In this document: positions 43,341 through 56,626 of the stretch, piece after piece
Layout: each line of letters begins with the position of its first letter
Position numbering within the stretch: the stretch's first letter is position 1
Assembly (NCBI GenBank): GCA_964411385.1
Contig: CAYPKT010000003.1
Span: 137,302 to 201,301 of the forward strand
Reading direction: 5' to 3'
Length of the DNA: 64,000 bases
Source of the DNA: an uncultured Candidatus Brevefilum sp.
GTDB taxonomy: Bacteria > Chloroflexota > Anaerolineae > Anaerolineales > Anaerolineaceae
The notes under the pieces: generated by a model
Told to the model about the DNA's origin: nothing
The model's input: the letters and a program-made list of their open reading frames with translations, nothing else
The model's database searches: none
Position numbers and translations under genes: made by a program

Positions 43341-44594
43341 TTATTGACCTTCCATCCAGCGCAGGAGTTGCTGGTTGTCATCCTCCCTGTGGGCACTTTC
43401 AATCGCCCCTTTATGTTTTGCCAAAATCTGCCAGGTTGAACGCGCATAATTTTTAAATAAAAACTGTAAGCGAAGAAGGTAATTATAAATCAACGCTGGT
43501 GAATCGGGCTGCACATTGTAAAGACGTGCCATGATGTGCCTTGGAAGAAAAATCCTTTTCATTACGATACTAACTTTATCCCGCCATCGTGTGGCAGAAG
43601 CTAATCTCGCCAAGTCGGGGGTGACCATTACAGCCTCTTCAATAGGCTCCTGAAAGATCTGTGCCTTCGCCTGGATAATGACCTGCGGGTCACCAGGGCG
43701 CTCTAAGAGGCGTTCTAAGGCGTTTTGAGGCAGATGTGTGCCAAACAGGTCGTATAACAGGGTTAATGTCAGGTGTAGAACGCGATTTACTCGCCAATCA
43801 TGGGCTCGAGAAACAAGCATATCCCAATCGACCTGGTTGCCAATCCTTTCAAGGACAACATGGATATCGTAGAGTGCACCTAAACCAGCCCGCAAACGGT
43901 GTTGATAAGTGAAATGAATAGCCAGGTGTAGAACTAAATCCTCGTATGATAGGCTCAATGCCTCAATACTACCAATTTTTGAAGACAGGGCACGCTCCCA
44001 CAGCCCTTGCGGATCTACCTTGAAGCCCCAATCTGCCTCTACAATGGACCAGTGAATTTCAACATAAGGACCCCCAGGTTTGATAAAGGGGGGTATATGT
44101 TTGATATCGTTATTTTCGTCCTTTGTACTGAAATAAGCAGTTTGCTGGTACCCGAGTGCTTCCATGAGCTTGAGCGCCCTCGAAAGATGACTGCGGGGAA
44201 CGAGTAAATCGATATCGTTGAGAACTCGATCGCCGATGTTCGGATAAATGTTGTCCAAAAGATAAATCCCTTTGAGCCCAATCACTGGGACATTGGCGCC
44301 AACCAGATGGCTGATAATCCCTTCAGCATGATGCAGCAAGAGCATGTTGCGGGCTGTATTGCTGAGGTGGATGTTATGGAGACGATTGCTGATATCGGTT
44401 GGAATTGAAAAGGTGTCTGGGGGGGAGCACAGGCGCGAATAAAGCGCCATTGACAAGTTTTGCTTGGCAGCAATACCCAAGAAGGTGTCCCACTCTTCTT
44501 CTGAGAAATTTTGAATGCGGGCCAGGGCTCGTGCTGGAAAGGGACTTGCGTTGAGAACCTGGCAGAGCAGGTTAAGATGGTCTTGGGTGGTCAT
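43341..44594 (-). CDS. PF14907-like uncharacterised nucleotidyltransferase
   Basis: 417 aa. The pattern LKGIYL...GDRVLNDIDLLVP...LGY...IKHIPPF...VEIHW is typical of the NTP_transf_5 family. Confidence 0.65.
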   Translation of the reverse strand: MTTQDHLNLLCQVLNASPFPARALARIQNFSEEEWDTFLGIAAKQNLSMALYSRLCSPPDTFSIPTDISNRLHNIHLSNTARNMLLLHHAEGIISHLVGANVPVIGLKGIYLLDNIYPNIGDRVLNDIDLLVPRSHLSRALKLMEALGYQQTAYFSTKDENNDIKHIPPFIKPGGPYVEIHWSIVEADWGFKVDPQGLWERALSSKIGSIEALSLSYEDLVLHLAIHFTYQHRLRAGLGALYDIHVVLERIGNQVDWDMLVSRAHDWRVNRVLHLTLTLLYDLFGTHLPQNALERLLERPGDPQVIIQAKAQIFQEPIEEAVMVTPDLARLASATRWRDKVSIVMKRIFLPRHIMARLYNVQPDSPALIYNYLLRLQFLFKNYARSTWQILAKHKGAIESAHREDDNQQLLRWMEGQ

Positions 44595-44722: not shown

Positions 44723-47700
44723 CTATTTATTTGGACCACTGATAAAAAGCGGGAGAAAAATCCCAAATCCAGTAATTGTTGCATTTTCTTTGGGAATTAT
44801 TTCGATCGTTACCTTCGCCAGGTTAGAATCAAGGGACCCATCATTTGCAATGAAAGTAAATGAATCAGTGCCGATATAATTTCCAGTCGGTGTATAAACC
44901 CGTTCGGGCGAGCCTTGTTCGCCTGATAATAACCCGTATATTGGCTCATCGACAATTGTAAATGTAAATTCTGTATCGTCTGGATTGTTAAATAAATTGT
45001 TAGAACTTCTCAACAGCATATTACTGCTATCAGCCGTAAGAGTAATATTTATCGGTACTTCCATTCGAGTAGAAAGATCTTGGTCATGTGCGATGGGACG
45101 ATTTTTGGAAATGACTTCAAGGGTAACCGTAGCGATGTTTGAAGTTTTTGTACCATCAGAGATACTATAGGTAAAGCTATCTACCCCATAAAAACCATCA
45201 TTTGGCGTATAGTTGAATGAGCCATCTGATGAGAGATCAAGTGTGCCGTATTGAACATTGGCTGCCAAAGACGTGGTTAATGCAGCCTTGTTTGGGTTAG
45301 TATCGTTGTTTAACACGCCTGTTTCGACAGGAACAATTAATTCGGTATCTTCTAAAATTGAATAATGATCGTTTACGGCGGTTAAACTTAGAGCTATTCG
45401 CATAGCCGGATCACCAAATAGGAGGTAAGTATCAATTTGGTCAAGGTCTCGACCTGAATTCCACAGGGTAAGCAAACTATTTTGAATGGCAGTCCCTAAT
45501 TTGGGGCTGCCATGCACGAACACAGATTCCAAAAAGCCATAATTTAGCCGCTCATGACCGCGATTGGTACCCCAGCCAGTGGGTGACCAGCTGGCTGCTG
45601 CGCCTTTGCCCGGTGTACGGGTGATGACTTCAGCCAGAGAATCTCTGGTCGTTAACTGGTGTGGCCAGATATAATAGCCATCTTGGCAGGTAAATGAAAG
45701 CAAAATCGATAGTTTTTCATTGTCTGGTGCCAGCGAATTGATGTGATCGGTTTTAAAAAACACTGGGTTTTTTCCCCAGCCTCCATAATAACCGTGACCG
45801 AAATAGTTAACAAAAAGCGAACCCTGGTTAAAGCCATCTTTAATAGTTGCTGTGGCTTGGTCAAGATCTGAATGGTTTTTTTTCCAATACATCTTTTCCA
45901 AGGAATAGGGCTGTGCAGGATACAGCTGGTTTAAAATAGCGTTTAACATCGCTGCATAATTGCTGCTAGGGCTCGAATCATAATCGGTCACTGCTAAAAG
46001 GTGATGTTGCCAATCGCCAAGGGGTGGGTTCGTTTCATAGGCAATAATTTTAGCAATAAAAGCTGCAGCTTCCTCCGGGGTATTGACCGCTAAACGCCCT
46101 AAAAGCATATTCGGGAGTGTGCTTTCGGTAGAAAGGCTGACGTAACGGTTGTCTGCGGCTGTTTCGCCGATGTTAGGGTCTACATTGGCTAAAAAGGGCA
46201 GGATAAAGCTTGGTTTCCCCCAATTTAAATAGTTTTTTGGGTCATAATGACCGTCCCCCACCAGCAAAACATAGGATGGGGCAGGTTCAGCCCAGGATTC
46301 CAGGGTGTAAGCCAAAAAGTTTTGCAAAGCCAAAACATCAGTGATGCCATAACCAAATTCATCATAAATGTCTTGGATATCAACCAAAACCGTATCAAGC
46401 CCCGAACCCTGACGGTACTGACGCAAAACCTCTGCCTGCTCCAAGAAATCTGCATGAGATATGATGAGGTAATCCGCCCGGTTTGAGATCGCGCTTAAAT
46501 TAGAAGGCTTATCCAAAGTGATGCCCTCTATGCTACGAAACGTCGCAGGGGTGCCAGACCAATAATGTACTGTCCCTATGATTTCGTCTTCGAAAGATAC
46601 GGTAAAGGCTGGGCCAACTTCTTGAATATCGAAATTTTGAATCTGGACAGGTTGGTGTGGGTTACTAATATCATAAATCTCTGCATCACCGCTGGTAAAA
46701 CCTTCTAATTTATATTGCCAGGTTCCAGCTTGATGAAAATTGAAGGCGAGCTCATCGCCCACAATCTCAAAAGAGCGGTCATAATTAAACTCGACCCAAT
46801 CAATATAAAAGGTATCAATTGTAATGCCGTTGTCAGCGTGTTCTTGGATCGTAAGTGTATTTTCGCCGGCAACCAGAACCCCCTGGGGGATATCAACCTC
46901 TGCCAGGTGAAAGTTAACTCCATCCCAGCGGATGTTATCCTCGATCTGGACTCCATTAATAAAAAGGACGGCGTGGTGATCGGGGTTAACACTGATATCC
47001 TGTGTAATCCCCATTAATAGGACCCGGAGGTGGACGATTTCACTTTGGCGATTTTGTAAGGTAAAAGATAAATCCCAATTCCTATCTGGACTTACCCATT
47101 CGCTAAAAAAATGTTCATACTCTCCTGGCGCCCCAGAAGAAACATAATAAGTGTTTTTTTCTATATGATAGGTATTAACAAAAGAGGAAGGAACCGGCGA
47201 GGAGCCTTCCAAAGTACCGTCTCGGGCGCCAATCCGTAAACCAGATGTTTTCCCATAAGTGAGCCAATAGATATTATCTTTTGTATATTTGTTGTCGATG
47301 CTTTGACCGTAAAATAAGATTGATTTGTCGGGGTTGACGATAATAGCAACCTCTTCGCCCAGGTGAAATAGCTGTAAAGTGTCTGGGTTAAGGCTGTCAA
47401 TCGGCACTCCAGCATCAACCAATTGGCCTGCGGTGAGATGGTAAAAACCATCCTCTTGGATTGAGATTTTCCAAGCAGGATCTGGGAGTGACCAATGTAA
47501 AGAACGTTGTTCGGCGATGCCTCTTTCGAGGGATGAATTCAGTCCCCGCCAGGATTTAGCCACGTCATAATTTAACAAGCTGCTTTGAAAAATGCTTTCA
47601 TATATAGATGAATCGGGTTCGTAAGACCGCTGCAATTGGGATGAAGCGCCGGAGAAGCTGACTTCGACGTAAATATCTTCATAAATGGTGAGTTCATTCA

Positions 47701-48280
47701 AGTTGGGGGCCCATTGAAAGGGGTAGACCCCGATACTGACCAAGCGTTGTTTGCGCAGGGTGCCGTCGTTGACCACCTCGGCAAACTGGCCGGGGTAGGG
47801 GACGTCTGCACGGTAAACAGATGGGTCTTGTTCGTAGATGGTTGTAATCTCCTTCGGAATGGGTAACCCGTCGTTGAGCTCCGGATCTTCCCAGGTTACC
47901 ACCTCACGGCTTTGGGGGAGGATGGGTGCATCTAACTTGATGGTATGGGCTTTTCCGGGGCTAACATGGAGGTCAATGGACGCACCGAACGGGGCGCCGA
48001 TCGCCTGGGTAAAGAAGGGCAGCTGGGGTGCACCTGGATCGCCTGAAGTCGGCCACCCCGGTAACAAAATTTGCGTATAATCCCCTGAGTTTGTCGATAA
48101 CAATTCTTGGATCACCCGGTCGGCAGGAACGTTGAGTGTAAAACTTAACCCATAGCTATCGCTTGAATGCAGTGTGATCTCACCCTCATCAACCACGGCG
48201 CTAACAGCACTGCCGGGCGATGGTGTTATAAGGGTGATCAAAATACCTGTAGTGAGGAGAATGTTGATTATTTTTTTCAT
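44723..48280 (-). CDS. Secreted gingipain-like (peptidase C25 family) protein with two C-terminal cadherin/Ig-like modules and a short hydrophobic tail
   Basis: Signal peptide and a propeptide-like N-terminus. Catalytic-type motifs FVNYFGHGYYGGWG (His) and LLSFTCQDGYY (Cys). Two repeats of the type VLNNDTN...YTPNDGFYGVDSFTYSISDG. The tail is ITGFGIFLPLFISGPNK. Confidence 0.72.
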   Translation of the reverse strand: MKKIINILLTTGILITLITPSPGSAVSAVVDEGEITLHSSDSYGLSFTLNVPADRVIQELLSTNSGDYTQILLPGWPTSGDPGAPQLPFFTQAIGAPFGASIDLHVSPGKAHTIKLDAPILPQSREVVTWEDPELNDGLPIPKEITTIYEQDPSVYRADVPYPGQFAEVVNDGTLRKQRLVSIGVYPFQWAPNLNELTIYEDIYVEVSFSGASSQLQRSYEPDSSIYESIFQSSLLNYDVAKSWRGLNSSLERGIAEQRSLHWSLPDPAWKISIQEDGFYHLTAGQLVDAGVPIDSLNPDTLQLFHLGEEVAIIVNPDKSILFYGQSIDNKYTKDNIYWLTYGKTSGLRIGARDGTLEGSSPVPSSFVNTYHIEKNTYYVSSGAPGEYEHFFSEWVSPDRNWDLSFTLQNRQSEIVHLRVLLMGITQDISVNPDHHAVLFINGVQIEDNIRWDGVNFHLAEVDIPQGVLVAGENTLTIQEHADNGITIDTFYIDWVEFNYDRSFEIVGDELAFNFHQAGTWQYKLEGFTSGDAEIYDISNPHQPVQIQNFDIQEVGPAFTVSFEDEIIGTVHYWSGTPATFRSIEGITLDKPSNLSAISNRADYLIISHADFLEQAEVLRQYRQGSGLDTVLVDIQDIYDEFGYGITDVLALQNFLAYTLESWAEPAPSYVLLVGDGHYDPKNYLNWGKPSFILPFLANVDPNIGETAADNRYVSLSTESTLPNMLLGRLAVNTPEEAAAFIAKIIAYETNPPLGDWQHHLLAVTDYDSSPSSNYAAMLNAILNQLYPAQPYSLEKMYWKKNHSDLDQATATIKDGFNQGSLFVNYFGHGYYGGWGKNPVFFKTDHINSLAPDNEKLSILLSFTCQDGYYIWPHQLTTRDSLAEVITRTPGKGAAASWSPTGWGTNRGHERLNYGFLESVFVHGSPKLGTAIQNSLLTLWNSGRDLDQIDTYLLFGDPAMRIALSLTAVNDHYSILEDTELIVPVETGVLNNDTNPNKAALTTSLAANVQYGTLDLSSDGSFNYTPNDGFYGVDSFTYSISDGTKTSNIATVTLEVISKNRPIAHDQDLSTRMEVPINITLTADSSNMLLRSSNNLFNNPDDTEFTFTIVDEPIYGLLSGEQGSPERVYTPTGNYIGTDSFTFIANDGSLDSNLAKVTIEIIPKENATITGFGIFLPLFISGPNK

Positions 48281-48320: not shown

Positions 48321-49187
48321 CTAAGCATTTTCAATGGTTTCTACCAGGTTAGACCCCTGCTGATAGGCGAGCGTGAAGAATGGTACATGGGTTGTCAAGC
48401 CTTCTAAATTTTCTAAAATATGATTGATTAATTCTGAGCGATAATAAGGAATGAAGGCTGTTTGTAAAATTTTTAAAACCCCATTGGCTGCGGTAAGCGC
48501 GGATAAGGTTTGCGGAGAGGACCTGTCGAGGAAGAACAATTTTTTCAAGGGTACACCTAAAGGGGAGCAGCGATCTGCCCGCACATGCCAGGGCGTGCCG
48601 TAGATCCAAAACTGTCCATCCTGGTAACGGAGGATAACCTGGTCCTCACCTAAAACGGTGATCCCCGGTTTGTCGGCTAAATCATCGGCGATGGTTGATT
48701 TCCCTGCACCGGATGGACCAAAAAAGACATAGCCTGAGCCAGCAAGGGCGACACCTGAGGCGTGCAAGATGAGGTCACCGTAATTTGCCAGGTAATTTGA
48801 AAACAAAACTATGTCTAAATATTGCAGCGGGTAAAAATCAAGCTCTCCTGGAGTATTTTGATCAATAAATACCTCTCCACATTGAAAGTTAGGGTCGATC
48901 ACCACCCAGCGTTTTGGCAAAATTTCAGACAGGAAAAACACATAATTCCCAGCGGGCTCTTTCCATAGTTCCCAAAGTGGGTTTTTAACAATCAGGTGAT
49001 TAGCCAATGGGCTTTTGAACACATGCTCAGATAATAATAGCCTTATAGGCATTGGACGATCAGCTAATAACCCCACTGGTAAATCTTCAGAAAGAAGAAA
49101 ACCCTGGTAAGATGACGGAAGCCAGGTGGGTTGTGTTGAACTCCTGGCTTCCAGAATGAGTTGTGAACCTCCGATAGATAAAATCAC
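48321..49187 (-). CDS. HPr-kinase-related (HprK C-terminal-domain-like) P-loop kinase
   Basis: LILHASGVALAGSGYVFFGPSGAGKSTIADDL matches the HprK-like Walker A region. The start is a GTG at 49187 and is uncertain. Confidence 0.65.
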   Translation of the reverse strand: MILSIGGSQLILEARSSTQPTWLPSSYQGFLLSEDLPVGLLADRPMPIRLLLSEHVFKSPLANHLIVKNPLWELWKEPAGNYVFFLSEILPKRWVVIDPNFQCGEVFIDQNTPGELDFYPLQYLDIVLFSNYLANYGDLILHASGVALAGSGYVFFGPSGAGKSTIADDLADKPGITVLGEDQVILRYQDGQFWIYGTPWHVRADRCSPLGVPLKKLFFLDRSSPQTLSALTAANGVLKILQTAFIPYYRSELINHILENLEGLTTHVPFFTLAYQQGSNLVETIENA

Positions 49188-49281
49188 AAAGAAATTTTCG
49201 TTGATTACAAAAACGAAATTTATTGGTTAATTCGTGTAAAAATATTAACCTATTAATAACGAAGGTAAGGATCATCCCCGG

Positions 49282-49467
49282 TTACGGGTGTGCACCTTCA
49301 GGACAGCCAACATGTTGATCATAACAAGCAATAGTCCATCCAGATGAGCCGGGAATTTCTTCTGCGGGGTATAAATTTGGGCTGGTATGGCAAACACCTA
49401 AGATAGCGCTTTTATAGGCAAGCTCTACTTTTTTAACGGTTGGCGCTGTGTATGGCTTTTTATTCAT
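49282..49467 (-). CDS. Candidate RiPP precursor peptide (61 aa, 3 Cys)
   Basis: MNKKPYTAPTVKKVELAYKSAILGVCHTSPNLYPAEEIPGSSGWTIACYDQHVGCPEGAHP. SD AGGAGA lies 9 nt upstream of the ATG at 49467. This start overlaps the stop of the radical SAM gene by 8 nt. Confidence 0.6.
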   Translation of the reverse strand: MNKKPYTAPTVKKVELAYKSAILGVCHTSPNLYPAEEIPGSSGWTIACYDQHVGCPEGAHP

Positions 49468-50572
49468 GGCTATGGATCTCCTTTGAAACATTCATTATGT
49501 TAATAATATCATATTCTGTATTTTTTGCCAATTGGCAAACATAATCGACAATGCTTTCATTATCGCCGTAAACCAATTGCGAGAACCCTGGGCATTGAGC
49601 ACATAACCCCGAAGCGGTGCAGGTTAAACAGGATGAAGGTTGTGTGCGTAATCTTTTAGGTTCAAGCCCCAGTTTTTTCCAGGCAGCGTCAAAGCCTGTG
49701 GTTAATACATCGTAAGACGTTTGACGTGCCATCATGCATAAATTAATGCGTCCGGCACTGTCAATATGAAATGATCGAAACCCAGCACCGCAATGGTAGA
49801 TGCGCTCATCTCTTAAGGTCAGCCCATTTGTATTTTCAAAGGTTTGAATCCAACCCTCCATACGCTTTGGGTCACGATGATTAAGTTTCAGCATGTCATC
49901 GATAGAAAGGCGGTAATTAAAATTGTCGTTGTTCCCATCGAGCCGGGGCCAGATGGTGCCATCATAATGTAATTCAACCCCGTAACTATCAGCGAGAGCG
50001 ACCATGTTTTGTAAGTCATGCTTATTTAGGCTGATCACCACCGATTTAAGGACGAATTTAATCCCACTGCTGGCGATTAAATCCAACCCAGCGGTAAAAC
50101 GTCTAAAAGAACCTGGAATGCGGGTGACAGCTTCATAAGTTTCTTCTGTTCCACCATACATGGTGACCTCAATTTGGGAAGGTGGGGCATCTAACAGCAT
50201 GTCTATGATCTTTGGCGTCATCATGGTGGCGTTCGTGAACAAGGTGATGATCAAGCCTTTTTTGCGGGCATACTGGTAAATTTCAGAAAAATCGGGGCGC
50301 AGCAGAGGTTCACCGCCGGTTATCAACAGGAACAGGGTGCCGGCTGCAGCAATTTGGTCGAAAATCGATTTAACTTGCGGGGTTGTCATTTCAGCCGCAA
50401 TCGCTTCAAGGCTGCCAGGCGGCTGGTTGATATAACAATGGACGCAGTTTAAATTGCAGCGGCTGGTGAGGTCAATACTGCCGCTGAGCGGGAATCGAGC
50501 ATCACCGATCGGCTTGTAAAATTGCTCCCACCAGGTAGCATTGTCAATTTCAGGGATGTTTAAACAATCCAT
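49460..50572 (-). CDS. Radical SAM enzyme with a C-terminal SPASM-like auxiliary cluster domain
   Basis: CNLNCVHCY (CxxxCxxC), GGEPLL, and a Cys-rich C-terminus (CGAGF...LCMM...CLTCTASGLCAQCPG). The start is either the ATG at 50572 or the GTG at 50617; the latter would overlap the PqqD gene by 38 nt. Confidence 0.85.
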   Translation of the reverse strand: MDCLNIPEIDNATWWEQFYKPIGDARFPLSGSIDLTSRCNLNCVHCYINQPPGSLEAIAAEMTTPQVKSIFDQIAAAGTLFLLITGGEPLLRPDFSEIYQYARKKGLIITLFTNATMMTPKIIDMLLDAPPSQIEVTMYGGTEETYEAVTRIPGSFRRFTAGLDLIASSGIKFVLKSVVISLNKHDLQNMVALADSYGVELHYDGTIWPRLDGNNDNFNYRLSIDDMLKLNHRDPKRMEGWIQTFENTNGLTLRDERIYHCGAGFRSFHIDSAGRINLCMMARQTSYDVLTTGFDAAWKKLGLEPKRLRTQPSSCLTCTASGLCAQCPGFSQLVYGDNESIVDYVCQLAKNTEYDIINIMNVSKEIHSHE

Positions 50573-50579
50573 AAGGTAT

Positions 50580-50870
50580 TTAAATCGCCTCCAAAGCTCC
50601 GATTTCAACCATATCACCGATGAAAGGCTCTAAATCGGAATGGGCATCATCTAAAGATACCAAAAACTCATCCAGAATCGAGCTGACTAATTCATCAAGA
50701 GTTTTTGGGTTTTCAAGCTGTTCCCACACGAAGGCGCCGATTTCGTTTAAAGAAAAGATATGATCCATCTCAGCTACGTCCTTGTGGACGGGCACGAGGA
50801 TGGTTTCTTCTGCGATTTTTCGATAAATGAAATCGGGATTTCTACGATAATGTATTATCGTTTCGGACAT
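50580..50870 (-). CDS. PqqD-family protein (RiPP recognition element-like)
   Basis: 96 aa. RRNPDFIYRKIAEETILVP...IFSLNEIGAFVWEQLENPKTLDELVSSILDEF matches the PqqD pattern. SD GGAGG lies 5 nt upstream. Confidence 0.8.
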   Translation of the reverse strand: MSETIIHYRRNPDFIYRKIAEETILVPVHKDVAEMDHIFSLNEIGAFVWEQLENPKTLDELVSSILDEFLVSLDDAHSDLEPFIGDMVEIGALEAI

Positions 50871-50879
50871 ATTGACCTC

Positions 50880-51428
50880 CTAAGATAAGTATTTACAAAA
50901 ACCTGGTACACATTTTAAAGGACGGTTGGTTAACCTAAGGTGATTATAACGGTTGAGTTGATGTCTGAGGCTGAAAACCATCCACAGAGAAAGCAACCGC
51001 ATGGATGAACGACTCATGCTGAAGTGTTCGCCAGTGCGCTCAAAAGACGCTAAGCGTCCATAAATAGCCTCAAGTGAAATCCATCCGTCAGCTTGAATAG
51101 AATTGTCAGCTTGCAGGAGAAACCTATGGCCAGATTCGTGTTGGCGTATTCGAATCACCCGATGAAGGACCATGCGGCCATGTTTATCAGCGAAGAAAAC
51201 CACATCACCAACCCGGATTGGGCCACCTGCAAGTGGAGTAATTAACAACATATCTCCCTGCCTAATGATCGGGACCATACTGTCCCCCGTGGCAAGCAGC
51301 CTGACAGCTTTACCGGAACGCAAACCCTCCTGGCATAAGTATGTGAAAACGTCAGGCGAGGGGGAGAACTTCTCTAGTAGAAATGGTTGGTTTGGGTTAC
51401 CTGGTCGAGTAGAAGGCATAACAATCAC
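50880..51428 (-). CDS. S26B (Sec11/SipW-type, Ser-His) signal-peptidase-like protein lacking an N-terminal TM helix
   Basis: ATGDSMVPIIRQGDMLLI, VGDVVFF, MVLHRVI and LLQADNS parallel the SGSMEP / GD / THRI / GDNN boxes of SipW-type enzymes. The start is either the GTG at 51428 or the ATG at 51419. Confidence 0.65.
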   Translation of the reverse strand: MIVMPSTRPGNPNQPFLLEKFSPSPDVFTYLCQEGLRSGKAVRLLATGDSMVPIIRQGDMLLITPLAGGPIRVGDVVFFADKHGRMVLHRVIRIRQHESGHRFLLQADNSIQADGWISLEAIYGRLASFERTGEHFSMSRSSMRLLSLWMVFSLRHQLNRYNHLRLTNRPLKCVPGFCKYLS

Positions 51429-51511: not shown

Positions 51512-52720
51512 CTAAGGTCGAGCTGCGGAGACCGGGCCAAACAATTCAGGCGTGTAGCTGGTATCGGAGGGAACGTCCTCGATCCAGTAGAAATAGGTCA
51601 GGCCGAGCTCAGCTGTGGTATCGAGGTAAGCGTAGTTGGCGCCGAAGGGGTTACCAGGGTTCGAATCGCCGACAATGATTTTACCGTTGATTTTTTCCTT
51701 AACACCGAACTCCATCTCAGAGCGATAAACGTTGAAGCCCAGGTGGTTGACTTCGGTAGCGGTGACCCAATTAAGTTGAATCCCGCCAGAGACGCCTTCA
51801 GCCTGGAGGTCGAGCATAATCACCGGGGTGATATCTTCGTTAGTGATGGCAGCGTATACACAATAGCAGTTATTTGTTTGCTCGGCAGTATACACCAGGT
51901 TATTTGAAAAGTCGGTCCCAATTGGAACGGTTGAGGGGCATTGCCCTGACGCAGGCTTATCGATAAAACCCAACAGGGAGACGGTGTATTCCCGTTCGAC
52001 TGGGTCGCCAGGCGTAGTGATGTTATCTACACATGTAAAATATTGTGTGTCACCTGGTTTGGTAATATTGACCCTGTCTGCACAGCCATTGCGGTTGGGA
52101 CCAGTATCTCCAGATACGTTTGGATAAGCTGAGCCACCCGGCCAATTGGGAGAGCTTGGGCCATATCTGCAAGGACTTTGGTTGTTCGTCGTCTCATCCA
52201 GGTTAAAGGTATAGACGAAATCCATCGTAGTTGGAGCATCCACCACATATGGTAGGTCACAAGCTAAACCGCTGATTGTAGCGGTGAGATCTACATACTC
52301 AAATGGATTATTGGGTGTAGAAATCGGGTTGTTAAAATGACAAAACGTGCCCACGTTAAAGGGAGTATTCAACGCGGGAGCATCGCCGATCCCTGTGCGT
52401 CCGAGGAAACCAAAACCACTTTTATTGCCAAAGGTATCTGATGAACCATAGCGTACCTGGTTCCAGTCAAAAGTTACGCGATTTTGAGTGTAAAGGTGAT
52501 TATTAGATCCGGAGGTAGAAGTAGTTTTGTAAGTCGGGTTGTCGTAATCATTTGAAGTAGCAGCTGGCCCGGTTGCCCACGTATTTCCGGTGGCTCCTCC
52601 GCCGCTATCAATTAACCCCCACACGCCATCCACACTGTTCATCGTAAAGGCTTGGACGACGCCTGTCAAGGTCAACGCTGCCATTAGCAGGCCAAAAATT
52701 AAAAGTATTTTCTTTTTCAT
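51512..52720 (-). CDS. Secreted Cys-rich protein, FCHFNN (THxN / choice-of-anchor-K-like) N-domain plus FN3-like C-domain, paralog A
   Basis: Signal peptide MKKKILLIFGLLMAALTLTGVVQA|FT. Motifs NQVRYGS...GFGFLG...GDAPALNTPFNVGTFCHFNNPI, and C-terminal LNWVTATEVNHLGFNVYR...YFYWIEDV. The ATG at 52720 has a 6-nt spacer from GGAG; an alternative ATG is at 52726. Confidence 0.75.
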   Translation of the reverse strand: MKKKILLIFGLLMAALTLTGVVQAFTMNSVDGVWGLIDSGGGATGNTWATGPAATSNDYDNPTYKTTSTSGSNNHLYTQNRVTFDWNQVRYGSSDTFGNKSGFGFLGRTGIGDAPALNTPFNVGTFCHFNNPISTPNNPFEYVDLTATISGLACDLPYVVDAPTTMDFVYTFNLDETTNNQSPCRYGPSSPNWPGGSAYPNVSGDTGPNRNGCADRVNITKPGDTQYFTCVDNITTPGDPVEREYTVSLLGFIDKPASGQCPSTVPIGTDFSNNLVYTAEQTNNCYCVYAAITNEDITPVIMLDLQAEGVSGGIQLNWVTATEVNHLGFNVYRSEMEFGVKEKINGKIIVGDSNPGNPFGANYAYLDTTAELGLTYFYWIEDVPSDTSYTPELFGPVSAARP

Positions 52721-53005
52721 CACCATCTCCTTAATTTAATTATCATAAATTGATAAATATTTCCCTTGTTTTAATAATTTACCCATCTTAAAAATTTGCT
52801 CTTTTGAGCTGAACTTATTAAAGTATAACGAAATAAAAAATAATTGTCAATATTTATTTTCTATTTTAAACGGTTTTCCTAATTTAAAAACAAATATCAT
52901 TAAATTACATTAAGAAAGTTTTGAAATAAATTTAAATACATGAATAACACAAATTGATTGCGACCCCTACAGCGGTGGTTTTGCGGTGCTCCTTAAGATA
53001 TCCTG

Positions 53006-53800
53006 TTACCTGATGGGTAATATGACGCAAGGATCGGGCTTTCCCGTTTCAGCTTGTGCACCGCAAAACCCAAAGTATTCATCACGGCTACCGCCAAATT
53101 GATTAGTGTTGATAAACTCCCACATAAAGGTGCCGCTGGTGTATGGTGTGGTCCAATTGCCTTGAGCACTTAATTCATCATAATAAGTTGTCGTAAATTC
53201 GTATTGGACACCACCTATTTTTCCGACCCCGATCAATTGAGAGGCGTTATTTGTAATTTTAACTTCACCTATCTTGAAAGTTCCATCAGGATCCTGAAAC
53301 CACACTGCCCAATCCCCGATCCAGAGTGTTTGTGGCGTGGCAGTTGGTTTAGGTGGGGGTGTGGAGGTTGGCTTCAACCCCGCAGGCTTGCTTTGGGTAG
53401 GGTCAGGTAAACTTGGCTGGGTGGAGGTGGGCACGCTGGTGGATGTTCTGCCAGGGTTGCCAGGCAGAGTTGTTGAACCAGCCTGGGGGGGCAAACCGGT
53501 CAGGTTGGGCGTAAAATTTACGTCTGGATGGGCACTCGTCGGGTTGAAACCGGAGCTTGAGTGATCAGCCCCAGGCGAACTTGCGTCCTCAGTTGGGCGG
53601 ACGGGTGCAAAAGGATCTAGCCCTACAAAGAACGAGGTCGGGGTTGGGCTGGGTTGCACCTCAGAATGGGTGGCGACTGCCCAGTCACCAGTGAAACCCT
53701 GGTTTGTTATCGATTTATTTTCAGCGCGGACATACCAAACGGTGGAGGCGATCAACGTTATGGTTAAGATGCTCAATAAGGTTATTGAATTTCGTCTCAT
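53006..53800 (-). CDS. Membrane-anchored protein with a Pro/Thr/Ser-rich linker and a conserved C-terminal globular domain, paralog A
   Basis: N-terminal TM helix ITLLSILTITLIASTVWYV, a low-complexity PT-rich segment, and C-terminus WIGDWAVWFQDPDGTF...FGFCGAQAETGKPDPCVILP. Paralog of 55832-56626. Confidence 0.7.
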   Translation of the reverse strand: MRRNSITLLSILTITLIASTVWYVRAENKSITNQGFTGDWAVATHSEVQPSPTPTSFFVGLDPFAPVRPTEDASSPGADHSSSGFNPTSAHPDVNFTPNLTGLPPQAGSTTLPGNPGRTSTSVPTSTQPSLPDPTQSKPAGLKPTSTPPPKPTATPQTLWIGDWAVWFQDPDGTFKIGEVKITNNASQLIGVGKIGGVQYEFTTTYYDELSAQGNWTTPYTSGTFMWEFINTNQFGGSRDEYFGFCGAQAETGKPDPCVILPIR

Positions 53801-53830
53801 AATAATTTAATTATAAGCGCTTTAGCTAAA

Positions 53831-53972
53831 AGAGAATAGTGAGTGGTGAATAGGAATTAGGGAATAGGAAGTAGGGATTAGGAAGGAGGAAGTAGGAAAT
53901 AGAGAATAGGAAATAGGAATTGGGAATTAGGGATTAGAGATTAGGAAGGAGGAAGTAGGGATTAGGGATTAG
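53831..53972. repeat. Heptanucleotide tandem array GRAWTAG, about 19 units (array A)
   Basis: Read by eye: tgaatag gaattag ggaatag gaagtag ggattag gaaggag gaagtag gaaatag ... ggattag ggattag. Confidence 0.9.
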
Positions 53973-54046
53973 ATCAGACTGTCATCTTTAGGTCGATTTT
54001 CATCAAAGGGGTAGTACCAGATGATGTAGGCGATCAACCCGAGCAG
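53969..54046 (-). pseudogene. 3'-terminal relic of a VanZ-like gene (duplication junction)
   Basis: 78 nt nearly identical to 56830-56907, the last ~25 codons plus stop of the intact VanZ-like gene. Similarity stops abruptly after GAGCAG. Confidence 0.8.
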
Positions 54047-54061
54047 ATCGCTTAACTCGCG

Positions 54062-54148
54062 TTACCAAAGCTCAAAAACTTCAGGCGAAGGTGCGGGTTT
54101 CATTGCAATAAGGGGCTGAGATGGGTTACTTGGTTGGTTAGAAGGCAT
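54062..54148 (-). pseudogene. 5'-terminal relic of the S26B-like peptidase gene (duplication junction)
   Basis: Encodes MPSNQPSNPSQPLIAMKPAPSPEVFELW*, versus MPSTRPGNPNQPFLLEKFSPSPDVFTYL of the intact gene. The upstream leader is also homologous to 51420-51511. Confidence 0.75.
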
Positions 54149-54193
54149 GATGGTCACGATGCTATGGTGAAATAATCCCATGTTGAGGGCAAC

Positions 54194-54226
54194 CTGCTGC
54201 GATAATCATTACGATCATCGCAGCAG
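54194..54226 (-). other. Conserved stem-loop after the secreted-protein stop codon (copy B)
   Basis: CTGCTGCGAT / ATCGCAGCAG, a 10-bp stem. The loop sequence differs from copy A. Confidence 0.55.
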
Positions 54227-54241
54227 TTGGTATCCTGTGAT

Positions 54242-55540
54242 CTAAGGTCGAGCTACGGAGACCGGGCCAAACAACTCAGGCGTGTAGCTGGTGTCGGAGG
54301 GAACGTCCTCCACCCAGTAGAAATAGGTTACGCCGGGTTCAGCTGTGGTATCGAGGTAAGCATAGTTGGCACCGAAGGGGTTACCGGGGTTTGAATCGCC
54401 AACAACGATTTTATTGTTGATTTTTTCCTTGACACCGAACTCCATCTCAGAGCGGTAAACGTTGAAGCCCAGATGGTTGACTTCGGTGGCGGTGACCCAG
54501 GTAAGTTGAATACCCGTTGAGACGCCCTCAGCAGCGAAGTCGAGCATAACCACCGGGGTGATATCTTCTTTAGTGATAGCAGCGTATGCACAATAGCAGT
54601 TATTGGTTTGTTCGGCGGTATAAACCAAGTTGTTTGAAAAGTCGGTTCCAATTGGAACGGCTGCAGGGCATTCCCCTGACGCAGGCTTATTGATAAAGCC
54701 CATCAGGGAGACGGTGTATTCGCGTGTAATTATATTAAGAGGATCGGCGTTATCCACACATGTAAAATATTGTGTGTCACCCGGTTTGGTAATATTGACC
54801 CTATCTGCACAGCCATTGTAATTTAATTGACCAGGGGCAGGCTGAGGGTTATTATAAGCTTCCTGCCCCGACGTGCAATAACTGCCACCATTAGCAGGCC
54901 AATTCGTGGATGAAGGCCCAAATGGACAGGCATGATAAACAGTGACAAGACTAGTTCTACATTTACAATCTCCTGTGCCCCATTCCCACGGCCAACATAA
55001 ACCTTGATTATTCGACGTCTCGGTCAGATTAAAACGATAATCGAAAGTCATTTCAGCTTGTGATGGGTCTGCCAAGATAAAAGGGTGTTCGCATTCGATA
55101 CCGGTGATTTTAACCTTAAGGTCAACCCAGTCCAAAGGGGCATTAGCACTAATTTCATTGTTGAAATGACAAAACTGGCCCACGTTGAAAGGGATATTCA
55201 ACGCAGGGGCATCGCCGATGTTTTGGTGCCCAAGGAAACCAAAGCCGCTTTTTGAGCCAAAGGTTGATGTTGAACCATAGCGTACCTGGTTCCAGTCATA
55301 TAGGACTTGGTTTTGGGTGGTAATTCGAGCAGCAACACTGTCTGTGGAATGTTGTGGAACATTAAAATCACCTCCAGAGAGAGGCCCACTTGCCCAAATT
55401 TGCCCAGTAGCGCCAGAATCTGTTCCGTTGATTTTATCCCATACACCGTCCACGTTGGCCATAGTAAAAGCCTGGACGACGCCGGTTATGGTTAAGGCGA
55501 GAAAAAATAAACCGAGAATTATAAATACCTTATTCTTCAT
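54242..55540 (-). CDS. Secreted Cys-rich FCHFNN protein, paralog B (carries an extra Cys-rich insertion)
   Basis: Signal peptide MKNKVFIILGLFFLALTITGVVQA|FT and motif FNVGQFCHFNNEI. There is a ~30-aa insertion LCWPWEWGTGDCKCRTSLVTVYHAC. The C-terminal half is close to 90 percent identical to paralog A. An alternative ATG is at 55546. Confidence 0.75.
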   Translation of the reverse strand: MKNKVFIILGLFFLALTITGVVQAFTMANVDGVWDKINGTDSGATGQIWASGPLSGGDFNVPQHSTDSVAARITTQNQVLYDWNQVRYGSTSTFGSKSGFGFLGHQNIGDAPALNIPFNVGQFCHFNNEISANAPLDWVDLKVKITGIECEHPFILADPSQAEMTFDYRFNLTETSNNQGLCWPWEWGTGDCKCRTSLVTVYHACPFGPSSTNWPANGGSYCTSGQEAYNNPQPAPGQLNYNGCADRVNITKPGDTQYFTCVDNADPLNIITREYTVSLMGFINKPASGECPAAVPIGTDFSNNLVYTAEQTNNCYCAYAAITKEDITPVVMLDFAAEGVSTGIQLTWVTATEVNHLGFNVYRSEMEFGVKEKINNKIVVGDSNPGNPFGANYAYLDTTAEPGVTYFYWVEDVPSDTSYTPELFGPVSVARP

Positions 55541-55831
55541 TTCCATCTCCTTAAATTAATCGTTTAAATTGTTCAATAAATATAATTGTTAAATAAGCTC
55601 CCTTTTATTTTGATTTACTAAACTAACCAGCTATTTATTGAGTATAAATGAGAATAATTCTTATGTCAAACATTTTTTGGGCGCAAATCAAAGAAAAATA
55701 TCTGCATTGTTTATCAAGAATATTTCAGGTTAATGCTATAGCGTAAGGGACAAATATCAACTGATGAAAAAAACAAACTATGTATCACTAGGTTAATGGT
55801 TGAACCCTTTGCGAAATTTCTACATATCGTG

Positions 55832-56626
55832 TTATCTTAGCGGTAATATGACGCAAGGGTCAGGCTTTCCAGATTTTTCTCTTGTGCCGCAAAACCCAAA
55901 GTATTCATCGTGGCTTCCGCCAAATTGGTTGGCGTTGATGAACTTCCAACGGAAATAGCCACTGGTAGCGGGTGTAGTCCAATAACCTTCGGCTTTCTCT
56001 TCGTCAAACCCTAAAATATCTAATTCGTATTGAACGCCGCCAATTTTACCAATGCCAATTAATTGAAGTGCATTAAATGTGATCTTTATCTTACCAGCTA
56101 TGAAAGTCTCATCAGGATGTTGGAACCAAACGGTCCACTCTCCTACCCAGGGAGCTTGAGCTATTTTAGTTTGAGTAGGTAGTGGGGTAAGCGTGGAGTA
56201 AGTGCCTGTAGGTTTGTTTTGGGTAGGACCCGGTAAGACCGGCTGGGTGGAGGTGGGCACGCTGGCAGGTGTTTTGCCTGGGTTGCCGGGCTGAGCAGTT
56301 GTGCCAAGTTGGTGGGGCAGGTCAGTCAGGTTGGGCGTAAAATTTACGTCTGGCTGGTCACCTAGCGAGTCAGGAGCGGGGTTTGAAAGATTGTCGCTGG
56401 ACGAACCTGAATCTTGTGTTGGGCGGACGGGTGCAAAGGGGTCTAACCCTGCAAAGAACGAAGTCGGGGTTGGGCTGGGTTCCGCCTGTGAATGGATGGT
56501 GACAGCCCAGTCAACTGTGAAACCCTGTTCGCCCCGTGATTTGTTTTCTGCGTACCCAAACCAAAAAGTGGAGATAATCATTACCGTGGTTAGGATAGTT
56601 AAAAGGATAATGGAGTTGCGTTTCAT
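55832..56626 (-). CDS. Membrane-anchored PT-linker protein, paralog B
   Basis: 264 aa with the same architecture and length as 53006-53800. C-terminus WVGEWTVWFQHPDETF...FGFCGTREKSGKPDPCVILP. Confidence 0.7.
   Translation of the reverse strand: MKRNSIILLTILTTVMIISTFWFGYAENKSRGEQGFTVDWAVTIHSQAEPSPTPTSFFAGLDPFAPVRPTQDSGSSSDNLSNPAPDSLGDQPDVNFTPNLTDLPHQLGTTAQPGNPGKTPASVPTSTQPVLPGPTQNKPTGTYSTLTPLPTQTKIAQAPWVGEWTVWFQHPDETFIAGKIKITFNALQLIGIGKIGGVQYELDILGFDEEKAEGYWTTPATSGYFRWKFINANQFGGSHDEYFGFCGTREKSGKPDPCVILPLR

Follow-up and report, generated by a model that had tools for sequence, protein, structure and literature searches.

We suggest that a 61-codon open reading frame (ORF) on the minus strand of a 64,000-nt stretch of the Candidatus Brevefilum sp. 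contig CAYPKT010000003.1 (hereafter the window, meaning the whole of the DNA analysed) encodes the precursor of a RiPP (a peptide made by ribosomes and then modified post-translationally) of a new family, matured by the radical S-adenosylmethionine (rSAM) enzyme and the PqqD-family protein encoded upstream of it. We put the probability of this reading at about 0.8. Most likely the neighbouring rSAM enzyme cross-links the peptide, which carries three cysteines, Cys26, Cys48 and Cys55.

The initial annotation had placed the frame at 49282-49467, with an AGGAGA Shine-Dalgarno (SD) sequence separated from the ATG by 9 nt and with an 8-nt overlap between the ORF and the upstream rSAM gene. All of this is confirmed exactly, the rSAM stop codon TAA being located at 49462-49460. 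It had also disfavoured the upstream ATG at 49491, from which a 69-aa frame would be read. We reject this start as well: the codon is ATA in the close relative L001, the homologues begin with MNKK, and the gene callers all use the same start. Rfam finds no RNA family in the entire window.

Size does not distinguish the frame from a chance ORF, or from an untranslated or regulatory frame in the spacer between the rSAM gene and the ScmC-like gene that follows. Frames of this length are common by chance, with 98 ORFs of at least 40 aa within 18 kb; hence, the case for a gene rests on comparison with other sequences. A word-indexed search returned three close variants, P0001 (61 aa, identical), P0002 (59 aa) and P0003 (62 aa), each encoded between an rSAM gene and a ScmC-like gene. 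Residues 1–35 are 100% identical across the three, and the remainder matches the window peptide at 17/26 and 9/26 residues, with in-frame indels of 6 nt and 3 nt, both multiples of three, in the C-terminal part. When the leader codons of the window are compared with those of L001 or L003, 11 differences are synonymous and none is non-synonymous, with a synonymous divergence (dS) of ~0.75. The rSAM gene in the same comparisons gives a dS of 0.50–0.65 and a ratio of non-synonymous to synonymous divergence (dN/dS) of ~0.11. As all substitutions in the leader are synonymous, the frame is under strong purifying selection, stronger than that on the rSAM enzyme. The competing 62-aa ORF at 49087-49275 was rejected, since L001 retains neither its ATG nor an intact frame. 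Judged by this comparison, the 61-codon frame is a real gene, and its C-terminal part diversifies while the leader stays fixed. Trp44, one of the residues that the initial annotation, naming His, Trp, Tyr, Asp and Thr, had listed as possible cross-link partners, is conserved in the closest four variants only, and a metagenome scan for further strain variants with an identical leader returned just 8 distant loci. Together with the number of homologues and the SD-like sites upstream of them, described below, these data effectively refute a chance or untranslated frame, to which we assign a negligible probability.

Identity between the window and L003 is uneven along the locus. It is 98–99% over 51600-50400, 79–87% over 50250-49200, that is in the C-terminal two-thirds of the rSAM enzyme, the peptide and the spacer, and 93–99% over most of the ScmC-like gene. 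In the gene of the C25 peptidase downstream it is 63–85% at 47550-46800 and otherwise 96–97%. This pattern points to allelic cassettes swapped among close relatives. L002, a 1,007-bp contig with a coverage of 0.4, aligns to 50194-49238 of the window in blocks of 100% identity, which are window-like, then L003-like, then L001-like. It may be a recombinant or an assembly chimera, and we gave no weight to its exact breakpoints. Co-variation of the rSAM enzyme and the core, suggested by L002 with its window-type rSAM and different core, was rejected for the same three-way mosaic at low coverage.

Homologues of the rSAM enzyme number more than 2,300 at E ≤ 1e-20, and 69 loci were fetched from species-representative genomes. 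Most belong to metagenome-assembled genomes (MAGs) of Anaerolineae recovered from sludge, digesters and anaerobic membrane bioreactors, with further loci in Syntrophorhabdus, Desulfobacterota and Armatimonadota. In nearly all of them an ORF of 46–65 aa with the same leader directly follows the rSAM gene. The start of the homologous ORF lies within 30 nt of the rSAM stop in 62/74 loci and overlaps it in 28 of the 74, the commonest offset being −8 nt (15 loci), and an SD-like (GGAG-type) site is located upstream in 72/74. While an exhaustive profile search gave 37 representatives, a profile of 57 members reached 3,600 clusters at 90% identity, so that the family comprises at least 3,600 clusters; every named one is a ‘hypothetical protein’ and none has a Pfam domain. 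No model of NCBIfam release 20 or Pfam-A is common to the 57 or 86 members scanned, with only stray matches of single members at E ~0.005 or weaker. Some genomes carry more than one precursor or cassette. Two tandem precursor copies are found in an Armatimonadota MAG (L052, 4936-5355), a second, different precursor in L025 (2346-2528), and two cassettes in several MAGs (L049/L065, L022/L043, L013/L060 and L040/L050). L005 (contig CAYVRM010000063.1), labelled Syntrophorhabdus, has an Anaerolineae-type cassette and a peptide closely like those of the Anaerolineaceae MAGs L006-L010, which suggests horizontal transfer or mis-binning.

The peptides share a strict signature. In alignment A4, P9, L23, C26 and C55 are invariant, and Y6, V14, L16 and C48 are conserved at 90% or more. 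Over the 146 family peptides used for signature statistics, the distance from the Tyr of YxxP to the first cysteine (Cys1) is exactly 20 residues in 146/146, exactly three cysteines are present in 143/146, and the leader is free of Cys in 144/146. The spacing from Cys1 to Cys2 is 12–22 residues, the 22 of the window peptide being the maximum, and that from Cys2 to Cys3 is 5–11 residues, or 5–9 in all but one peptide, with 7 in the window. The initial annotation had assigned all three cysteines to the C-terminal part. Their conservation is borne out, but Cys26 belongs to the conserved block at its fixed distance from the Tyr. The annotation had further likened KKPYxxPxVKKVEL to the K-x-Y-x-x-P-x-L leader theme of many rSAM-modified peptides and taken the ORF as the precursor for the adjacent PqqD/rSAM pair. 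A K-K-x-Y-x-x-P-x-V leader is indeed conserved beside rSAM homologues, as are the frame and the cysteines, and the assignment to the pair, with the three cysteines as the residues that function, is thereby strongly supported. The Y6-x-x-P9-x-V11 element is nearly invariant, and one member weakly matches the model lasso_leader_L3 (E = 0.29). In all six frames of the window the family motif is found once.

Two subfamilies can be described. The Anaerolineae-type one, to which the window peptide belongs, reads M-x-KK-x-Y-x-AP-x-V-x-KV-x-L-x-x-K-N-A-[IV]-L-x-x-C-H-[ST]-S-P...C-x4-8-C, and the larger one reads ...KKPY-x-KPE[VI]K-x-V-x-LRPEEAVLG-x-CK...GP...C-x4-7-C-x-x-x-G-S. Cys1 is followed by His in 27 of the 39 Anaerolineae-type members and by Lys in the other subfamily. 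Peptides of the larger subfamily close with Gly-Ser, the last residue being Ser or Thr in 90/104, whereas the window peptide ends in Pro; a Ser at Cys1+3, Ser29 in the window, is present in 39/39 members of its own subfamily.

The leader is conserved and the core variable, in alignments A4 and A7 of the family as well; this pattern and the PqqD partner make up the signature of a RiPP. AlphaFold2 (AF2) prediction for the peptide from an 86-sequence alignment gives a predicted TM-score (pTM) of 0.18, no secondary structure and no fold, as would be expected of a substrate peptide and not of a small protein that folds. The three invariant cysteines and the His that often follows the first of them could instead mark an unmodified small Cys/His metal-binding protein or an accessory subunit of the rSAM enzyme. 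However, the absence of a fold, the exchange of this His for Lys in the other subfamily and the RiPP pattern itself all speak against it, and we consider it highly improbable. A lipoprotein or Sec signal reading of ‘ILGVC’ was also rejected: K12, K13, E15 and K19 break any h-region, and the residue before Cys1 varies (V, N, T, F, A).

The proteins encoded around the precursor provide the likely enzymes. In the rSAM enzyme the CX3CX2C motif is invariant (C39, C43 and C46), as are seven cysteines of the SPASM region (C261, C279, C315, C318, C324, C327 and C346). Its AF2 model (pLDDT 82.7) finds SkfB, PqqE, SuiB, CteB and anSME, all peptide-modifying SPASM enzymes, as the best PDB folds, and SkfB is the closest solved structure both by sequence (E = 3e-20) and by fold. 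We tried to read the reaction type from the structure and rejected this approach, as the fold search fails to discriminate reaction types. Among NCBIfam models, ScmD and the lasso PqqD chaperones come nearest to the PqqD-family protein, though neither reaches its cut-off; this protein is presumed to be the leader-binding RiPP recognition element (RRE).

The ScmC-like protein has invariant H142, GxSGxGK[ST] and D182 (alignment A5). Its profile matches the HPr kinase/phosphorylase (HprK/P) structures 2qmh, 1jb1 and 1ko7 at E ~1e-4 over 55 residues, whereas ABC ATPases are matched only over the 23-residue P-loop. An apparent HprK/P-like P-loop protein fits the label ‘kinase’ that the gene had been given. 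In a Brevefilum MAG (L060, 3890-7461) an ABC transporter and a small ORF (…TPDENVLLHCK…C…C..C…GS) are followed by a 655-aa rSAM/SPASM-ScmC fusion and a second rSAM/SPASM gene, a layout nearer to the two-rSAM SynChlorMet cassette discussed below. The fusion gives Rosetta-stone support for a joint function of the two proteins.

The S26 peptidase has invariant GxSMxP, HR and D, a Ser/His/Asp pattern that we take to be the signature of endoplasmic reticulum (ER)/archaeal-type signal peptidases (Sec11/SipW). None of its 21 aligned sequences shows a hydrophobic stretch resembling a membrane anchor at the N-terminus, and the protein is therefore probably cytoplasmic. It is a candidate leader peptidase. 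We prefer this role to that of a signal peptidase for the secreted neighbour with a choice-of-anchor-K domain, because the S26 gene is kept in the cassette even where the anchor-K protein is missing.

On the minus strand the genes are ordered as anchor-K protein, S24/S26 peptidase, PqqD, rSAM/SPASM, peptide, ScmC-like protein, C25 peptidase and NTP_transf_5 protein. A tblastn search of the window proteins against 73 loci recovers them at the frequencies given in Table 1, with the order mostly kept. Among five sampled loci of the distant subfamily, four have PqqD, rSAM, peptide, ScmC and a small SipW-like peptidase; the fifth, L093, has the first four genes, with no separate small peptidase gene listed. 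In three of the five, C25 peptidases of 1,379–2,001 aa come next, and exopolysaccharide (EPS) or NTP_transf_5 genes lie close by in two. From this gene content the conserved core consists of five genes (PqqD, rSAM/SPASM, peptide, ScmC-like and S26), with C25 as a frequent sixth. The cassette is kept across Chloroflexota, Desulfobacterota and others. The NTP_transf_5 gene is found in 26 loci by clustering of neighbouring ORFs, and also in L076 and L091.

We propose the following pathway, which judging from the genes would work like an RRE-dependent rSAM RiPP system, a familiar paradigm.

Step 1: The peptide would be translated from its own strong SD site, with its start overlapping the rSAM stop, both features being observed in the sequence.

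Step 2: The leader K-K-x-Y6-x-x-P9-x-V11-x-x-V14-x-L16 would bind the RRE of the PqqD protein, as YxxPxL does in lasso systems, where this motif is located at −17 to −12 of the precursor (PMC10368454).

Step 3: The observed 20-residue ruler from the Tyr would put Cys26 in the active site of the rSAM enzyme.

Step 4: The SPASM enzyme, presumably with three clusters, would make radical-mediated cross-links via the three cysteines. Cys-based cross-links are the likeliest product because the three cysteines are the only universally conserved residues of the core. They are consistent with linkage of Cys sulfur to C-alpha, C-beta or C-gamma, without proving it, and thioether rings of the sactionine or ranthionine type are the likeliest cross-link, at roughly even odds, with other Cys chemistry as a possible alternative.

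Step 5: With the leader still attached, the HprK-like ScmC protein would add an ATP-dependent modification. By analogy with lasso systems it probably phosphorylates a Ser or Thr: there, HprK-like kinases phosphorylate the linear precursor before leader removal, the RRE stimulates the reaction, and most phosphorylated peptides are modified at the C-terminal Ser (PMC10368454). The terminal Gly-Ser of the larger subfamily matches such sites. In the window peptide Ser29 would be the best candidate.

Step 6: The S26 peptidase would cut the leader at A-[IV]-L-[G/A/S]|x-Cys, here after Gly24, releasing the 37-residue core VCHTSPNLYPAEEIPGSSGWTIACYDQHVGCPEGAHP. The residue at Cys1−2 is G, A or S in ~95% of the peptides and that at Cys1−4 is V or I in 142/143. 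We infer that this pattern fits the −3/−1 rule, with a cut one residue before Cys1.

Step 7: A second processing or an attachment to the cell surface is possible, perhaps with the secreted C25 peptidase.

Several points weigh against this reading. For every characterised maturase family the rSAM enzyme scores far short of the curated cut-off (PapB 51.9 vs 340, StsB 88 vs 625, AlbA 63 vs 850), the cofactor maturases included (MftC 102 vs 265, PqqE 71 vs 381), and the related enzyme of L074 scores 51 against the QhpD cut-off of 453; therefore the reaction type is not readable from homology and is a guess. Residue frequencies are the sole basis of the −3/−1 cleavage site. In most lasso examples HprK-like kinases act on a C-terminal Ser, which the larger subfamily possesses and the window peptide does not. 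The precursor gene lies 3′ of the enzyme gene and possibly is coupled to it 1:1, which would be unusual for a substrate. The strain-level mosaicism partly rests on short metagenome contigs of low coverage, which may be chimeric. Finally, an all-against-all clustering of neighbouring ORFs found no conserved exporter, with ABC-type proteins in 5 loci only.

The absence of a conserved exporter from the neighbourhood would also agree with an rSAM-modified peptide that is not secreted as a free natural product but serves the PorU-like C25 peptidase as a dedicated substrate or partner during cell-surface or EPS assembly. The C25 enzyme could, for example, clip the peptide and transpeptidate it onto a polysaccharide or a surface protein; alternatively, the protease could be regulated by the peptide. 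The C25 gene directly follows the cassette in 46/73 loci and in 3/5 distant loci of other lineages, and a secreted choice-of-anchor-K protein heads the operon in 44. The cassette is embedded here in an EPS-type locus with genes for a low-molecular-weight protein tyrosine phosphatase (LMW-PTP), Wzc, DegT, a sugar nucleotidyltransferase, a dehydratase and a priming transferase, and Wzc or Wza genes are also near it in L076 and about 10 other loci. The C25 protein reaches 249 bits with the PorU sortase model, though below the cut-off of 420. Nevertheless, the five-gene core occurs without C25 in L074 and L091, variation of the core among strains is a trait more usual in peptides for antagonism or signalling, neither an acceptor nor a sorting motif was identified, and the argument is one of pure guilt by association. 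We regard this alternative as unlikely. Slightly less probable still is its fuller form, in which a cross-linked and possibly phosphorylated or nucleotidylated three-Cys peptide, released by the cytoplasmic ER-type S26 enzyme, is used by the secreted PorU-like C25 peptidase or transpeptidase in surface or EPS assembly; such a peptide could serve, for example, as a tag or anchor that differs among strains and is covalently attached at the surface, and not as a diffusible antibiotic.

MftC and PqqE are among the best matches of the rSAM enzyme, and the presence of a PqqD chaperone likewise recalls the precursors of peptide-derived redox cofactors or of small cross-linked enzyme subunits, such as those of pyrroloquinoline quinone (PQQ), mycofactocin and QhpC. 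QhpC is a small subunit with three thioethers made by a SPASM enzyme. However, the core varies with indels between near-identical strains, whereas cofactor precursors keep their reactive residues and surroundings. The variable core also lacks the motifs of the PQQ (E..Y) and mycofactocin (GVY) precursors. No conserved dehydrogenase partner appeared in the 73 loci or in the clustering of neighbours, several MAGs have two cassettes, L052 has tandem precursors, and all scores are far below the family cut-offs. A cofactor or subunit precursor is thus very unlikely, if a little more credible than the metal-binding protein considered above.

We return to the cross-linked RiPP and its relation to known systems. 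The general features of rSAM/SPASM RiPPs with an RRE are found together here: an adjacent co-oriented ORF, the leader/core pattern, PqqD, and CX3CX2C with the SPASM cysteines. In sactipeptide and ranthipeptide systems (SkfA/SkfB, CteA/CteB, PapA/PapB and QhpC/QhpD) a short Cys-containing precursor likewise stands beside an rSAM/SPASM maturase with an RRE, a K-K-x-Y-x-x-P type leader is common to both, and SkfB is the closest structure. Unlike in these systems, the rSAM enzyme of the window does not fall into a characterised thioether family (AlbA, SkfB, StsB, PapB or QhpD) by cut-off, the RRE is a separate PqqD protein, the peptide has three cysteines only and a fixed Tyr-to-Cys1 ruler, and further proteins are encoded in the cassette, namely an HprK-like one and the soluble S26 and C25 peptidases, the last of these secreted. 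The six-Cys motif of SCIFF peptides is absent, as there are three cysteines, and no NCBIfam family is shared among the scanned members.

The uncharacterised SynChlorMet (SCM) cassette of NCBIfam/TIGRFAMs is similar in having a PqqD-like protein, a ScmC-type P-loop protein and rSAM/SPASM enzymes, and ScmC, ScmD, ScmE and ScmF give weak matches. However, the scores in the window are under the cut-offs (ScmC 27 vs 125, ScmD 31 vs 100, ScmE 60 vs 400, ScmF 79 vs 400), there is one rSAM enzyme instead of two, and an S26 and usually a C25 peptidase are added. Likewise, no protein of the five distant-subfamily loci reaches the SynChlorMet cut-offs. By these scores the window cassette is a sibling of SynChlorMet and not a member.

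Phosphorylated lasso peptide clusters with genes K, for an HprK-like kinase, and N, for a nucleotidyltransferase (paeninodin, pseudomycoidin and bsf), share with the window cassette a Y-x-x-P-x-[LV] leader whose spacing to the core is fixed, a discrete PqqD RRE, which has lasso PqqD chaperones among its best NCBIfam relatives, and HprK-like and nucleotidyltransferase-fold proteins. The Gly-Ser end of the larger subfamily resembles their phosphorylated C-terminal Ser (PMC10368454). Unlike in these clusters, no Asn-synthetase-like cyclase and no B2 transglutaminase-type protease is found among the genes of the window cassette, where an rSAM/SPASM enzyme and an S26 peptidase are present in their place. 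Thr(−2) is absent, and a non-systematic look at the cores gave no sign of a ring-forming Asp/Glu pattern.

Full-text literature searches found no description of the peptide motif (e.g. PEEAVL) or of the cassette, and nothing on SynChlorMet, ScmC, rSAM with PqqD and HPr kinase, or SPASM with HPr kinase. One survey counts ‘RRE-containing’ and ranthipeptide clusters in Anaerolineae MAGs, which is a generic antiSMASH count (PMC11748557). The family is thus large, uncurated and RiPP-like, with unusual accessories in the HprK-like protein, the soluble S26 peptidase and the C25 peptidase.

If our reading is true, a small gene opens a RiPP-like family of very large size, with 3,600 clusters or more, no family model and no paper found, which is common in Desulfobacterota and in Anaerolineae of digesters, sediments and activated sludge. 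Given how far the maturase stands from all characterised rSAM families, its cross-link chemistry could plausibly be new. To our knowledge, a soluble ER-type S26 enzyme acting as leader peptidase would be a new class of RiPP protease. The HprK-like protein, sometimes fused to rSAM, would extend RRE-guided phosphorylation beyond lasso peptides, and the fixed 20-residue spacing from Tyr to Cys1 offers a testable ‘molecular ruler’ for RRE-guided catalysis. The steady association with C25 and EPS genes may point to a function in the cell-surface, filament or biofilm biology of organisms that give wastewater granules their structure; were the peptide used by the C25 enzyme, RiPP chemistry would be linked to protein or polysaccharide sorting in Chloroflexota and Desulfobacterota.

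Table 1. Features of the precursor locus and its surroundings in the window; the last column gives the number of loci, out of 73, with a tblastn match.
Feature	Position	Strand	Remarks	Loci (of 73)
Precursor peptide gene	49282..49467	−	61 aa + stop; product MNKKPYTAPTVKKVELAYKSAILGVCHTSPNLYPAEEIPGSSGWTIACYDQHVGCPEGAHP	
Conserved block, residues 1–35	49363-49467	−	Y6-x-x-P9 leader motif and Cys26	
Variable part, residues 36–61 of the precursor peptide			Cys48 and Cys55	
Shine-Dalgarno sequence AGGAGA	49477..49482	−	Inside the 3′ end of the rSAM gene; 9-nt spacer to ATG 49467-49465	
Radical SAM/SPASM maturase	49460..50572	−	370 aa; start ATG 50572, not GTG 50617	
PqqD-family protein	50580..50870	−	96 aa; Pfam PqqD E = 3.7e-14	60
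ScmC-like P-loop protein	48321..49187	−	288 aa; HPr kinase/phosphorylase-like catalytic core; precomputed Pfam PF27840 ‘ScmC’	63
Soluble ER/archaeal-type S26 (SipW/Sec11-like) serine peptidase	50880..51428	−	TIGR02228 E = 1.4e-12; Pfam S24; gene callers start at 51419 (179 aa)	43
Secreted choice-of-anchor-K domain protein	51512..52726	−	NF038131 37.5 bits vs cut-off 30; heads the conserved Anaerolineae-type operon	44
Secreted C25 (gingipain/PorU-like) cysteine peptidase	44723..48280	−	1185 aa; Ig/cadherin-like domains; also in 3/5 distant loci	46
NTP_transf_5 nucleotidyltransferase-fold protein	43341..44594	−	Pfam E = 4e-53; frequent, positionally variable accessory	22
AT-rich 7-bp inverted repeat TTTCGTT/AACGAAA	49196..49218	−	Ends 9 nt before the GTG start of the ScmC gene	
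Promoter-like TTGGCA-17-TATTAT with extended TG	49503..49531	−	Within the rSAM 3′ end; the peptide ATG follows 36 nt downstream; consensus match only	

The inverted repeat between the peptide and the ScmC-like gene had been read as a weak hairpin that could partially terminate transcription. The repeat is present, but termination finds no support: a scan of 49188-49281 gave no consensus terminator-like site, the spacer folds no better than its shuffles (z −0.09 and +0.18), and the repeat is not conserved in L001 or L003. We thus reject a terminator or attenuator after the peptide. In the family the median folding z-score after the precursor is −0.5, and strong hairpins occur only in the L005-L010 clade, with peptides of the …GFCHSSPNLFPK… type, where the 100 nt after the precursor stop reach z −2.3 to −5.5. 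The promoter-like site could give the precursor its own transcript. Since the site is part of coding sequence, its conservation is uninformative.

A signal peptide is present in the C25/PorU-like peptidase, whose C-terminus forms a short hydrophobic tail (…TGFGIFLPLFISGPNK). The window also contains a tandem duplication of a gene pair (51512-56626, minus strand), which consists of a 264-aa Pro/Thr-rich secreted protein and a choice-of-anchor-K protein, with the copies at 55832-56626 and 54242-55546 and at 53006-53800 and 51512-52726. Both anchor-K proteins end in the same domain of ~100 aa (…GIQL[NT]WVTATEVNHLGFNVYRSE…GPVS[AV]ARP), for which there is no Pfam or NCBIfam match and which might serve the neighbouring C25 peptidase in sorting. 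The region 39697-64000 is a long co-directional exopolysaccharide/cell-surface locus on the minus strand, where genes for a LysM protein, two VanZ, Bac_transf, a methyltransferase, Wzb (the LMW-PTP) and a Wzc-like tyrosine kinase are also found. The GC content is 41–49% over 42–62 kb of the window and 36–42% over 14–42 kb.

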